Below are positions 38,998-43,504 of a DNA stretch of 64,000 bases, in pieces (within the stretch, counting starts at the first letter, position 1; each line of letters opens with the position of its first letter). The DNA is taken from the sequence record PV654517; one strand, given 5' to 3'. The translations under genes were made by a program, and so were the position numbers. The notes under the pieces are model-generated. The model searched no databases. It saw nothing but the letters and a program-made list of their open reading frames with translations, and was not told where the DNA came from. Source of the stretch: Escherichia phage vB_ECOLIGBLB0003.

Positions 38998-40457
38998 AAA
39001 CCAGTTACCTCATGAAAATCACCAAATACATCCTCGAATGTATTAGCTTTAGTTTTATCTTCACGTAAACGAATCGCAATCGGAAGAAATAATTTAACGT
39101 AATCAGTGCGGCCATCAGATTTTAACCAACCGTTGCATTCGCACTCTAGAATTTTTCCAATATAATAATTTTGGTTTTCCATAATGCGAGTACGGTCAAG
39201 TTCATGCGATTTTACACCGGCTTTATCTTTTAAGCCTGAACCAGCATTTACTTTAATTTTTCCACACTCTGACTCAAGAATAAATCCACCTGCTTTAGTA
39301 GGGTCTTTACGGTGAGGATAAATTCCTACAATTTTTAAATCAACATCAATTACTTCTTTAAATTTATAGAGATTTTTTGAACGAGCATTTTCCCATAATC
39401 CATCGATATTTTTGAGAATAATACCTTCAAGACCTTGGTCAATATACTTTTTATAAATTACCTTGGCTTCGTCTAGGTTATTTACTACCTGGTTTTCAAT
39501 TAAAATTACTTTATCATAGCCTGATGTCATTTGTTCTAGTTTAGAAAAACGTACATCATATTTTAAACGAAATGCTGGAAGACCGTATACTTCTACCAAC
39601 GGGACATAATCCCAGACCTGAAACTTCATGCATTGTGCTTCTTTTTCAGAAATGGTTCCCTTTAAAGATTTATTGGCGATGCCATTAGATGCAGTACGTG
39701 ATTCAGCTACTTCTGTGAAGTCTTTAACTTTACTGTTTTCAGGATGAGAATCAAAAAGAAAATCTAGGCCTTCTGGCTCCTTTTTAACTTGCTCATGGTA
39801 TACCAATTCGCCATCAATTAACACGCCTTCTGGATGAATCTGGCGAGCTTCAGCAGTCATTTTGATTAATTCTTCCTTAAGAAGATCTAATCCTAGATAT
39901 TCATTACCGGCTCGTGATAAAAGACGAACATCATCTAATTCATCACCTCTGACTTCAGCAAAGCACCGAGCCCCATCAGCTTTTAACTGGGCAAAGGCTG
40001 GAAATTTAATATTCTTATTAATGCCTTTTTCATCATAAGAACTTGCAAGCATTTGAGGTTGTTCAGGAATTAAACCTGGCCAAACTTTGTTTGCAATAGA
40101 TACTGAAGCACCACATTCAAGGTCTCGCATCATCACTCGACGCAAAACTTCAACATCATCTTTTTTACCATCGGTGATATATCCAGTTAATTCCTCAATT
40201 GCTGCATTTCCAGTCAATTTCCGAGTAGCTAATGTGAATTCAATGAAGTCAAGCATATCGGTAAGAGTCAACATTCCAAAACTCTGGGTAGCAATACCAG
40301 GTTTAGGCCATTTCTTGATATAATACTGCAACCCACGAGAATAAGTCAGACGATATACTCGTTTAAGCAATTCATTATCTTTATTCTTTTCAAGAATTGC
40401 TTGCTTCTGCTTAGTTGAACCAATAGATGCTATTTCGTTCAGAATTTTAAGAATCAT
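38994..40457 (-). CDS. 30: ATP-dependent DNA ligase gp30
   Basis: 487-aa ORF with adenylation motif KADGAR; length fits T4 DNA ligase. Confidence 0.93.
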   Translation of the reverse strand: MILKILNEIASIGSTKQKQAILEKNKDNELLKRVYRLTYSRGLQYYIKKWPKPGIATQSFGMLTLTDMLDFIEFTLATRKLTGNAAIEELTGYITDGKKDDVEVLRRVMMRDLECGASVSIANKVWPGLIPEQPQMLASSYDEKGINKNIKFPAFAQLKADGARCFAEVRGDELDDVRLLSRAGNEYLGLDLLKEELIKMTAEARQIHPEGVLIDGELVYHEQVKKEPEGLDFLFDSHPENSKVKDFTEVAESRTASNGIANKSLKGTISEKEAQCMKFQVWDYVPLVEVYGLPAFRLKYDVRFSKLEQMTSGYDKVILIENQVVNNLDEAKVIYKKYIDQGLEGIILKNIDGLWENARSKNLYKFKEVIDVDLKIVGIYPHRKDPTKAGGFILESECGKIKVNAGSGLKDKAGVKSHELDRTRIMENQNYYIGKILECECNGWLKSDGRTDYVKLFLPIAIRLREDKTKANTFEDVFGDFHEVTGL

Positions 40458-40723
40458 TATTCATCCTTCAGAGTTTGATTTACAGTTCTATTATAAATCA
40501 ATTCATCATTAAGCTCAGGCAAAGACTTATGATATGTAGTTCTAACTTTATTTCCTTGCATCCAGTGCTTGACGTAAATGAAACCTTGCTCTACACATTT
40601 TTTAAAAATTCGTTCGTCTTTTTGAGCTCGGAATTCTGGATTGCATCTAAAAAATTGATTTACGTGACCGTAATCACGTGTAGTATTACCTTCATTTTCA
40701 TAAATAGTGTGAACAACAAACAT
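40457..40723 (-). CDS. Hypothetical protein (30.1-like position)
   Basis: 88-aa ORF translationally coupled with its neighbours. Confidence 0.6.
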   Translation of the reverse strand: MFVVHTIYENEGNTTRDYGHVNQFFRCNPEFRAQKDERIFKKCVEQGFIYVKHWMQGNKVRTTYHKSLPELNDELIYNRTVNQTLKDE

Positions 40724-41562
40724 TAGAATGCTCCTTGGAAAATATTATTAGCACCAGTAGGTCTATTATACAAATACTCTATGCCACCGGGTTTAATATA
40801 GTTCCATGTCTGAAACGGATGCGTCTGATATGGATGATATAGATGATTATAAGGATTAAATCCAGGAGTTCTCCAGGTAGTGTTCCAACGAAAAGAATCG
40901 TTTTTAATCATCTTCTCAATTACATCTTTTATAGCTTTTTCACTATCAAAACTTTCTTTATTTTCCTTCAATGGAAAAAGCTTATTCTCTACATCATTCC
41001 ATGTATAAACACGCTGTGCAGTTTTTGGAATACTGTCACGCTCCCCTCGAGCCATCCAATAAACAGGCACATTTAATATTTCACTCGCATGATCGCAGTG
41101 GTGAGCGAGATCGTCAATATAACAAATTACGTTATATTTCTCTTTTGCCTTTTTGAACAACTCTTCTTTTGAAGAATCATGACCACACATCAGTACTTCT
41201 GAGAAGGCACCAGGAAAAAGAGCATTCAAATTAAATTGACGATTCAGCAGAGCATCAATAGAATCACCCAATGCTGTAACAGCTACAAAATTATAATCTT
41301 CTTTTAATTTGTTAATTACACATAGAGCATCTTTATACGGAGACAAGTAACGAATAAAATCTGAACGATTGTATTTTTCAATTAACTTGACGCCAAGTTC
41401 TTCATCACAATTAAAAAGTTTACCTGGAGAAATAAATTTCTCATCCTGGATCATTTTTAAAATATGTTCTAACGGAAGATTATATTTCTGAGCAAAATAA
41501 GGAAGGCCTGATTGCCAGCTTAAACATACTCCATCAATATCAGTTAAAATAGTAGGCTTCAT
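40723..41562 (-). CDS. HAD-superfamily hydrolase-like protein (30.2-like position)
   Basis: 279-aa ORF with HAD motif I LTDIDGV near the N-terminus and a YIDD motif; aromatic-rich C-terminal 60 aa. Confidence 0.6.
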   Translation of the reverse strand: MKPTILTDIDGVCLSWQSGLPYFAQKYNLPLEHILKMIQDEKFISPGKLFNCDEELGVKLIEKYNRSDFIRYLSPYKDALCVINKLKEDYNFVAVTALGDSIDALLNRQFNLNALFPGAFSEVLMCGHDSSKEELFKKAKEKYNVICYIDDLAHHCDHASEILNVPVYWMARGERDSIPKTAQRVYTWNDVENKLFPLKENKESFDSEKAIKDVIEKMIKNDSFRWNTTWRTPGFNPYNHLYHPYQTHPFQTWNYIKPGGIEYLYNRPTGANNIFQGAF

Positions 41563-42017
41563 AGAGAGTCTCTTAATAGGTTTAACACATCAATAAATTC
41601 AGCTTCGGTTAGTATTGTATCATCTTTTGTTAGACCACTAGCCATGCTGTGCTTCAAAACTTTTCCTTTCGAGGCTTGTAATGCATCACGAAAGCCCTTG
41701 TTTTGGATCGCTGCTTCAAAATATGCATTTGTGTATAATTCTTTCCACGCCGGGGAGTATCTTGAAAACGGAACTCCAAGCCAGAAGAGGGTCCCATGGT
41801 CCTGAGCTCTAGCATAAGACCTTCCAGCTTGTTGAGCGGCAAGCCCGGATAACCCAAATATACGACGTTGTTGTTCAACGTTTTTCACCTTGCATCCTTG
41901 GAGGAATCCTTCAAGACCTCCAAATTGAATACCATCCATAACGAAAGGCCAATGGGCGAAATTACTTAATGCACATGATGGCCACCTAAAATTACTTCTA
42001 ATCTCTAACTCAGACAT
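41559..42017 (-). CDS. NADAR (YbiA-like, DUF1768) domain protein (30.3-like position)
   Basis: 152 aa from ATG 42017; motif SNFAHWPF...DG.QF...EGFLQGCK resembles the NADAR/YbiA family; the ORF-track start is an upstream TTG. Confidence 0.65.
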   Translation of the reverse strand: MSELEIRSNFRWPSCALSNFAHWPFVMDGIQFGGLEGFLQGCKVKNVEQQRRIFGLSGLAAQQAGRSYARAQDHGTLFWLGVPFSRYSPAWKELYTNAYFEAAIQNKGFRDALQASKGKVLKHSMASGLTKDDTILTEAEFIDVLNLLRDSL

Positions 42018-42216
42018 TTTCAATGCTTATAATTTCAACATCAGCCCAATGACCATAGCAAGGAAGACGAAATTCAACTGGCCAGTCACTGCCTTTTTCT
42101 AATATAATAGACTCAATTTGTGGTTCTTCATGTTCATCGGTATATGGATTTTTATCTGTTACTTTATATGTGACCTTAATGTACTGAATTCCAAAAATCT
42201 TATTAATTATATTCAT
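42010..42216 (-). CDS. Hypothetical small protein (30.x array)
   Basis: 68-aa ORF with ATG start; stop overlaps the downstream start. Confidence 0.55.
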   Translation of the reverse strand: MNIINKIFGIQYIKVTYKVTDKNPYTDEHEEPQIESIILEKGSDWPVEFRLPCYGHWADVEIISIENV

Positions 42217-42704: not shown

Positions 42705-42718
42705 TCCTCAATAAGGGG
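42705..42718 (-). terminator. Hairpin GGGGCTGAAGCCCC inside the 30.x array
   Basis: 5-bp GC stem with tetraloop between two minus-strand ORFs. Confidence 0.4.
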
Positions 42719-42738
42719 CTGAAGCCCCTCATTTTATT

Positions 42739-43104
42739 TTAAATATCAAATTCGTTAAGAACTACATCAAAGATTGCTTCAAGATGCTCAGGTTTAGCTC
42801 TGTTACTCAGAATATGACGAATCCAAGTTTTAACTAAGAGTTTACGATTAGCACCATTCCAGCAAGGATGAGTCCCTAAATCGCGTTGACGGAAATCATC
42901 ATCTAGAGCGATTTTAAAGTTGGAACCTTCCATTGTGATTGAAACCGTGATGCCATTTTCAAATCGCATATAAACGTAGTTAGGAGTCATATACTGTTCA
43001 ATTTCGCATACTGATCCATTTTGATGTTTCCAAAGGCAGATGGTATCAATAGAACCTGTAATACCATTAGAAACATATTTACGTTCAAAGTTAATGTAGT
43101 TCAT
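42739..43104 (-). CDS. Hypothetical protein (30.x array)
   Basis: 121 aa from ATG 43104, preceded by GGAG; the ORF-track start is an upstream TTG. Confidence 0.55.
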   Translation of the reverse strand: MNYINFERKYVSNGITGSIDTICLWKHQNGSVCEIEQYMTPNYVYMRFENGITVSITMEGSNFKIALDDDFRQRDLGTHPCWNGANRKLLVKTWIRHILSNRAKPEHLEAIFDVVLNEFDI

Positions 43105-43171
43105 TTTATTCTCCAAGATGTTTAATTGCGGTACAGGTATATAATATCATGTCCTGTACCAAAGTAAACAA

Positions 43172-43504
43172 TTATTTTACTACTTTCCAATGCTGCATGT
43201 CAAGTTTACCAACTTTTTTCATCTTCTCAATTAAGCGTTTGGCACGTTGGCGAGCTGTAACATAATACCATTCACCTAATTCATTTTGTTCAATTTTTCC
43301 AACGATTACTGTATTCAATTCATAAATCCAACCAGTAAAGAAATTATGAACTTGAATTGTAAAGGTGAAATCTGTTCCCATACCTTCTGTTGTTTCTACT
43401 TCAATGATATCACCTTCAACTGCCATTAAGAACCACATAGTTTCATCATATTTACCATTGAAGCATTTAGTTTTAACTGCAGCGTTCAGATTAATCGTTT
43501 TCAT
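43172..43504 (-). CDS. Hypothetical protein (30.x array)
   Basis: 110-aa ORF with SD AAAGGAG and an early-type promoter upstream. Confidence 0.6.
   Translation of the reverse strand: MKTINLNAAVKTKCFNGKYDETMWFLMAVEGDIIEVETTEGMGTDFTFTIQVHNFFTGWIYELNTVIVGKIEQNELGEWYYVTARQRAKRLIEKMKKVGKLDMQHWKVVK

Follow-up and report, generated by a model that had tools for sequence, protein, structure and literature searches.

Gene 30.3 of Escherichia phage vB_ECOLIGBLB0003, very probably an orthologue of the T4 anti-DarTG1 gene adfN

The analyzed window was a stretch of 64,000 nucleotides of Escherichia phage vB_ECOLIGBLB0003 (PV654517), in which gene 30.3 had been singled out as a candidate anti-defense gene. 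By sequence, the genome is that of a Tequatrovirus (T4-like phage). A megablast search with positions 40400-43600 against phage genomes gave 714 matching records, 468 of which cover at least 80% of the block; the best record was Shigella phage SHFML-26, with 98.8% identity. Open reading frames (ORFs) were mapped for 38-48 kb, and the block was compared with the annotated T4 record and by pairwise protein alignments. The minus strand of 40457-43504 encoded the counterparts of T4 genes 30.1-30.8 with amino-acid identities of 92.6-98.9% and ATG starts; the region is the ordinary 30.1-30.8 block of T4-like phages. The eight small minus-strand ORFs described in a sequence-only reading of this DNA, made by a model without database searches, were all present, but they do not follow gene 30, as had been stated there: on the coding strand, the 30.8-30.1 array is located upstream of gene 30, and alt.1 and alt come after it.

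The product of gene 30.3 was identical to T4 gp30.3 at 149 of 152 residues (98%). The three substitutions, Q22H, R74H, and I125M, are all conservative and spare the catalytic positions; at position 125, Met is the consensus residue of the family. The YbiA/NADAR-like signature quoted earlier for ORF 41559-42017 was read in the window protein (ALSNFAHWPFVMDGIQFGGLEGFLQGCK). In Pfam, the protein matched PF08010 (Phage_30_3) with an E-value (E) of 1.7e-69. A database search retrieved 103 gp30.3 homologues, all of which belonged to PF08010; the JGI name of some was 'YbiA (DUF1768 family)', and PF08719, the NADAR model of Pfam, was matched in addition by one. Precomputed matches to both PF08010 and PF08719 were found for several YbiA-family proteins. 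Comparison of the gp30.3 family with a 27-member YbiA/PF08719 alignment by hhalign gave a probability of 97.5% (E 6e-12, 126 columns) and paired E36, Q40, and K43 of gp30.3 with E48, Q52, and K55 of YbiA, respectively. When the family profile was compared with the PDB, E. coli YbiA (2b3w) was matched with E 0.0065.

The AlphaFold model of gp30.3 had a predicted local distance difference test score (pLDDT) of 93.7 and a predicted template modeling score (pTM) of 0.89. Its top three PDB matches in Foldseek were YbiA, the Geobacter lovleyi NADAR, and the ADP-ribose-bound Phytophthora NADAR, with nothing credible after them, which places the modeled protein in the NADAR fold. In the alignment of 48 homologues, E36 and H123 were invariant, and K43 was present in at least 90%. 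The window protein keeps E36 and K43 of the E-x3-Q-x2-K motif (T4 numbering) as well as H123, which is located within strand 120-123 of the model. It has the full 152 amino acids (aa) with the C-terminal helix 138-151 intact; in the inactive allele of RB69, this last helix is truncated. The NADAR assignment of this ORF was borne out by the profile comparison, the fold, the catalytic residues, and the 98% identity to T4 gp30.3.

The anti-DarT function of the gene is already known, having been established by experiment in 2023-2025. DarTG1 resistance of T2 and T4 was mapped to gene 30.3, which was renamed adfN, for anti-DarT factor NADAR (Johannesman et al. 2025, PMC11825919). In that work, AdfN was necessary and sufficient for the resistance of T4/T2 to DarTG1; deletion of adfN sensitized T4 and T2, abolishing plaquing on DarTG1, and adfN supplied in trans rescued RB69, in whose own allele the final 15 residues are missing. 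Variants E36A and K43A were impaired, the purified protein stripped ADP-ribose off DNA, and AdfN was ineffective against DarTG2 (PMC11825919). NADARs reverse the ADP-ribosylation of guanine that DarT1 catalyzes (PMC11543638). The subfamily-defining position in the last strand is occupied by His in phage NADARs, by Glu in the YbiA type, and by Asp in the BC4488 type (PMC11543638, PMC11125620). All NADARs tested cleaved guanine-ADP-ribose in DNA, and none cleaved thymidine-linked ADP-ribose (PMC11825919, PMC11125620); a 'T4 phage NADAR' construct was part of the assays on guanosine- and thymidine-ADP-ribosylated DNA in the study that named the phage proteins 'gp30.3 proteins' (PMC11125620). The latter study is cited for the in vitro activity of gp30.3 in a passage of PMC11825919. 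According to its methods, the construct 'E. coli T4 phage NADAR (gp30.3)' comprises residues 1-208, as against 152 aa in T4 and in the window; the protein assayed may thus have come from a different phage with a longer homologue. A second, independent line of evidence is a T4 transposon screen (HIDEN-SEQ preprint, 10.1101/2025.11.20.689424, supplementary data), from which all screen values given below were also taken: gene 30.3 had a log2 fold change (log2FC) of -7.25 on DarTG1. On hosts without the defense system, adfN is non-essential.

Because the window protein differs from that of T4 by three residues and keeps E36, K43, H123, and the terminal helix, the reading of the gene as a candidate anti-defense factor against DarT-type toxins was correct and already established, the activity having been shown by experiment for the 98%-identical T4 orthologue (PMC11825919). 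The gene is very probably the orthologue of T4 gene 30.3 (adfN) with the anti-DarTG1 role as proposed. Several points weigh against this. The search of gp30.3 with PF08719 gave no direct match at E<=0.1, NCBIfam gave no NADAR match, and a single-sequence phmmer search of the PDB returned nothing meaningful; the NADAR/DUF1768 comparison suggested in the sequence-only reading was thus negative as a direct search and positive between family profiles, and NADAR membership rests on profile-profile and fold evidence. H123 was set by hhalign opposite YbiA H126, one column past the family Glu125, whereas in the literature the phage His is equated with that Glu. T4 AdfN failed to neutralize DarT1 in uninfected cells, and the non-T-even phages T5 and Bas25 were poorly rescued by it (PMC11825919). 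Finally, the experiments concern the T4/T2 alleles; the allele of this phage is presumably as active as that of T4.

The arrangement of the reading frames bears on how adfN may be expressed (Table 1). Adjacent frames overlap at six junctions in a row, namely 30.6/30.5 (1 nt), 30.5/30.4 (4 nt), 30.4/30.3 (8 nt), 30.3/30.2 (4 nt), 30.2/30.1 (1 nt), and 30.1/30 (1 nt). TAATG was found at 30.6/30.5, 30.2/30.1, and 30.1/30, and ATGA at 30.5/30.4 and 30.3/30.2. The 8-nt overlap of 30.4 and 30.3 is ATGTCTGA, with the 30.3 ATG within the last codons of 30.4. The run of overlaps extends on into 30/alt.1, giving a stretch without gaps from 30.6, its first gene, to alt.1. Overlapping stop and start codons, previously described for the whole array, were therefore found at six of its eight junctions, the other two, 30.8/30.7 and 30.7/30.6, being spacers of 67 and 41 nt. 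The hairpin in the shorter spacer had a terminator-like score on the plus strand only in our scan, that is, not on the coding strand. In the record of phage Lutter, promoter and terminator predictions are annotated at the equivalent 30.8/30.7 and 30.7/30.6 spacers, and a further predicted promoter annotated inside 30.6 maps by offset to window 42466-42496. For 30.3, the ORF caller extended the frame to TTG at 42023; the ATG at 42017, chosen in the earlier reading, is the T4 start and fits the published residue numbering. A Shine-Dalgarno motif was not found in the sequence ahead of 30.3.

Table 1. Coordinates (window numbering) of the genes and predicted sites in and next to the 30.1-30.8 block.
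Feature	Coordinates	Strand	Description
gene 30.8	43172..43504	-	110 aa; PF06019, E 1.4e-58; 98.2% identity to T4
promoter-like site	43141..43168	-	TTTACT, 16 nt, TATTAT; 30.8/30.7 spacer; consensus scan; prediction only
gene 30.7	42739..43104	-	121 aa from the T4 ATG; PF06919, E 1.2e-52; 98.3% identity to T4
GC-rich hairpin GGGGCTTCAGCCCC	42714..42729		in the 41-nt 30.7/30.6 spacer; junction sequence
gene 30.6	42410..42697	-	95 aa; 98.9% identity to T4; PHROG 2153
gene 30.5	42213..42410	-	65 aa; 98.5% identity to T4; PHROG 1690
gene 30.4	42010..42216	-	68 aa; 93% identity to T4; PHROG 2042
gene 30.3 = adfN	41559..42017	-	152 aa; predicted NADAR-superfamily DNA (guanine-N2) ADP-ribosylglycohydrolase, anti-DarTG1 factor; activity from T4 orthologue
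gene 30.2	40723..41562	-	279 aa; HAD-superfamily hydrolase; 96% identity to T4 gp30.2
gene 30.1	40457..40723	-	88 aa; DUF3045, PF11243, E 2.6e-62; 94% identity to T4
gene 30, ATP-dependent DNA ligase	38994..40457	-	directly downstream of the array; 98.6% identity to T4 gp30; PF01068

Within 30.3, T4 has an internal ORF, 30.3', in another frame (window 41654-41881). Its annotated ATG is ACG in the window, with only a TTG start left; the change (AAT->AAC) leaves the amino acid encoded in the 30.3 frame unaltered. This suggests that 30.3' is not a conserved gene. Four of the database proteins matched by gp30.3 (P0014, P0015, P0051, and P0091) were short and carried a partial PF08010 joined to PF06919 (gp30.7), PF06019 (gp30.8), PF11097, or PF26911. 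They look like deletion/fusion variants and suggest that the 30.x block may be a rearrangement hotspot.

The following course of events is proposed. Upon infection, the host toxin DarT1 of the DarTG1 system would add ADP-ribose to guanine of the phage DNA and thereby block replication. AdfN, a probable free-standing NADAR-fold glycohydrolase and kin of the cognate antitoxin DarG1, would hydrolyze the guanine-ADP-ribose bond, and replication would be restored. The gene would be expressed early, from the gap-free run of overlapping frames 30.6 to alt.1. Since adfN has no ribosome-binding site of its own, its translation is probably coupled to 30.4, depending on ribosomes that finish this overlapping upstream frame. 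The neighboring gp30.2 would be a HAD-type phosphatase without relation to AdfN, its gene accompanying that of the DNA ligase, and would have no part in the anti-DarT function.

A role of further genes of the block has to be weighed against this course of events. T4 AdfN is fully effective only in T-even infection, and the authors proposed that an additional T-even protein may be required (PMC11825919). The product of 30.4, and possibly that of 30.5, might be this functional partner, a T-even-specific factor for full activity of T4 AdfN. Neither gene is mentioned in the main text of the HIDEN-SEQ preprint; in the supplementary data, T4 insertions in 30.4 were depleted on DarTG1 (log2FC -1.79, adjusted p-value 0.014), and among the screen rows compared, 30.4 was the only significantly depleted gene besides 30.3, the value for 30.5 (log2FC -3.0) being not significant. 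Furthermore, 30.4 was found only beside the Tevenvirinae-type 30.3 and always with the same 8-nt overlap; an iterated search with hidden Markov models in all ORFs of 80 loci detected no remote gp30.4 homologues near distant NADARs beyond 13 close ones. If true, a gp30.4 helper would explain both the failure of AdfN(T4) in uninfected cells and T5-like phages and the position of 30.4 as the second significant gene of the screen. The same data are, however, accounted for by polarity, and polarity via translational coupling is the simplest explanation because 30.4 runs past the start codon of 30.3, a Shine-Dalgarno motif was not found ahead of it, and a promoter is predicted in 30.6. The depletion of 30.4 was partial, about 3.5-fold as compared to about 150-fold for 30.3, and insertions in 30.6-30.8 were neutral in the screen data, which is consistent with the promoter predicted inside 30.6. 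Purified AdfN alone is active in vitro (PMC11825919), and in one complete viral genome (L005), 30.3 is intact next to a 30.4 disrupted by frameshifts. Polarity is thus the likelier cause of the 30.4 depletion, and a T-even-specific helper role of gp30.4, required by T4-type AdfN in vivo, seems unlikely to us. In the L005 genome, which is T4-like and 169.6 kb in length (IMGVR_UViG_2974742932_000001), 30.4 (4800-5008) contains two frame-disrupting indels with a stop after codon 5; 30.7 and 30.8 were also absent. The indels could be natural decay or a sequencing error.

Three other readings were weighed against that of an anti-DarTG1 glycohydrolase acting apart from its neighbors. One is a two-enzyme module of gp30.3 with gp30.2, the HAD phosphatase to which it would be translationally coupled; gp30.2 might, for example, act on the ADP-ribose set free by gp30.3 or on a phosphorylated intermediate. 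The stop and start codons of the two genes overlap by 4 nt (ATGA), and the genes are neighbors in every close relative and in a small number of distant loci (L015, L016, L044, L045, and L052); nevertheless, a 30.2 homologue occurred within 5 kb in only 19 of the 80 viral loci with a gp30.3 homologue. A ligase match was located just downstream in 18 of these 19, the exception (L006) being a contig that ends inside 30.2, and 30.2 therefore tracks gene 30 rather than the NADAR gene. In the screen data, T4 insertions in 30.2 (71 sites) were neutral on DarTG1 (log2FC -0.12, p 0.61). A module of this kind is very unlikely, and gp30.2 was also rejected as the missing cofactor of AdfN in view of these neutral insertions and of a co-occurrence that follows the ligase. 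Insertions in 30.1 (log2FC -0.01) and 61.2/adfA (log2FC -0.34) were likewise neutral in these data. Alternatively, the NADAR could be tied to the phage's own Alt enzymes 3-5 kb away, such as by reversal of self-inflicted ADP-ribosylation; in the sequence-only reading, the proximity of the genes had been called suggestive, though no proof that they are linked in function. The two ADP-ribosyltransferase genes reported there were confirmed as full-length Alt-type paralogues (PF03496, E 2e-37 and 5e-20) at 2.8 kb and 4.9 kb from 30.3. Against a functional link, the order of alt, alt.1, 30, 30.1, and the genes that follow is that of T4, a case of conserved synteny, and distant gp30.3 homologues have no neighboring alt. 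T4 Alt modifies arginine of host proteins. The NADARs tested, by contrast, act on guanine-ADP-ribose in DNA (PMC11825919, PMC11125620), and alt insertions in T4 had no fitness effect on DarTG1 according to the screen data (log2FC -0.01). The link to alt was accordingly rejected as extremely improbable. Hardly any more credible is a metabolic housekeeping role of gp30.3 as a YbiA-like N-glycosidase on intermediates of the riboflavin pathway. YbiA was among the closest structural matches, and its RefSeq name is N-glycosidase YbiA; the phage clade, however, has His in place of the Glu of the YbiA family (PMC11125620, PMC11543638), the T4 protein de-ADP-ribosylates DNA directly and has a DarTG1-specific phenotype (PMC11825919), and its gene is non-essential on hosts without the defense system. 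This reading is contradicted by the published data.

The ligase-linked protein gp30.2 carried all four HAD motifs: D8xD10 (I), T96 (II), K132 (III), and D150-D151 (IV). Among 35 homologues, D8, D10, K132, D150, and D151 were invariant, and T96 was present in at least 90%. The protein consists of a HAD core (about 1-200) with a C1 cap, followed by a tail rich in aromatic residues, Pro, and Asn (225-279). The AlphaFold2 model has a Rossmannoid core with a helical cap, with pLDDT >90 to about residue 200 and <50 from residue 225, the tail being predicted as disordered. Foldseek matched the model to 113 HAD structures at E<=0.001; the best 50 of these 113 were almost all natural HAD-superfamily enzymes. 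Among the matches listed, the best target coverage was that of 5'(3')-deoxyribonucleotidases, with target-normalized template modeling (TM) scores of 0.64-0.71, and a weak sequence match to mouse cdN agrees with this result. The model and the conserved motifs support the assignment of gp30.2 as a putative HAD-fold hydrolase, most like 5'(3')-deoxyribonucleotidases. The HAD motifs ascribed earlier to ORF 40723-41562 thus held in both the alignment and the modeled fold. A profile search did not return a HAD family for it: no Pfam match was found at E<=0.1, the sole NCBIfam match was spurious and far below the curated cut-off, and a weak match to PHROG 415 (polynucleotide kinase) had E 0.004. The gp30.2 family is not modeled in the Pfam/NCBIfam libraries. 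Our literature search found no publication on gp30.2; gene 30.2 is non-essential in T4.

The aromatic-rich C-terminal tail of gp30.2, also pointed out previously, was evident from the composition of residues 225-279: 24% W+Y+F, 11% P, and 13% N. Many homologues have no tail or have unrelated Pro/Trp/Tyr-rich tails (e.g., ...LRAYY... and ...YVLLNK..ANDS...). The tail (window 40723-40962, residues about 200-279) contains GGIEYLYNRPT, and the pattern G-(T)-G-I-E-Y-L-x-x-Q-P-T was shared by 16 of 100 homologues. Because the C-terminus of gp33, TLDFLL (window 63415-63762; review PMC2988020), looks similar, we considered whether G-I-E-Y-L might be an epitope that binds the gp45 clamp and rejected this idea: the two are only superficially alike, gp33 has nothing at its C-terminus to match the Q-P-T part, which is conserved to the same degree, and the motif is present in just 16 of the 100 homologues.

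The two Alt paralogues are encoded in tandem at window 34602-36659 and 36663-38759 (685 and 698 aa, respectively), whereas T4 has one alt along with alt.-1 and alt.-2, which are remnants. In the window, the orthologue of T4 alt has an overall identity of only 72% because one part has strongly diverged. A 155-nt non-coding insertion relative to T4 was found between 30.9 and rIII (43910-44064, core 43919-44053). Its 135-nt core has 93-96% identity in Klebsiella and Raoultella phages, with flanking coding DNA of only 67-75% identity. The element was present in about 179 phage records, absent from T4, and located at the same spacer in KpnM6E1 (Jiaodavirus), the one relative inspected. No Rfam family matched it, even with the cut-off relaxed to E<=1, a tRNA was not found in it, and its folding z-scores were weak (-1.8 and -1.0). 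The thymidylate synthase gene (about 57074-58962) appears to be split by an intron-like insert with a GIY-YIG (I-TevI-like) ORF at 57533-58270; a group I intron was not reported by the Rfam gathering scan of the window. The Rfam and tRNA scans of the window gave no matches. At window about 47045-47055, some 318 nt present in T4 (133651-133969 of its record, cd.4/cd.5 region) are missing.

The case is a positive control for reading raw sequence alone: a real anti-defense gene was recovered, and the experiments that established its function date only from 2023-2025. The gene can be named adfN, which is of value for annotation: 30.3 was labeled as hypothetical or with the uninformative 'phage protein' in all 25 of the best-matching GenBank phage records.

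Compared with T4 gp30.3/AdfN, the window has the same gene with the same overlaps to its flanks 30.4 and 30.2, 98% protein identity, and the same E36, K43, H123, and C-terminal helix; it differs in Q22H, R74H, and I125M and in the loss of the ATG of 30.3'. In contrast to DarG1, the NADAR antitoxin of DarTG1 (BC4488 subfamily, e.g., Geobacter lovleyi NADAR, 8bat), AdfN is an orphan without an adjacent toxin; it has His in place of Asp at the last-strand catalytic position, shares only 15% identity with DarG1, and is unable to replace it in uninfected cells (PMC11825919). E. coli YbiA (PF08719, YbiA subfamily of NADAR) carries Glu as its subfamily-defining residue and shares about 20% identity with gp30.3; it is encoded by a chromosomal gene, and the K-12-type ybiA is part of a LexA-controlled operon (PMC11125620). 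AdfN(Bas32) and AdfN(Bas60) of T5-like and Vequintavirinae phages are likewise phage-encoded NADARs that counter DarTG1 and not DarTG2, but they were independently acquired, belong to other NADAR branches, and, unlike the T4-type protein, neutralize DarT1 without the phage context (PMC11825919). As for gp30.2, it shares with the 5'(3')-deoxyribonucleotidases cdN/mdN (HAD, C1 cap) the DxDGV motif I, the four HAD motifs, and the Rossmannoid core with a helical cap, with a Foldseek E of 4e-8 at the TM scores given above; it differs from them in sequence (14-18% identity), in the extra 80-residue disordered aromatic tail, and in being encoded beside the DNA ligase gene in T4-like phages.

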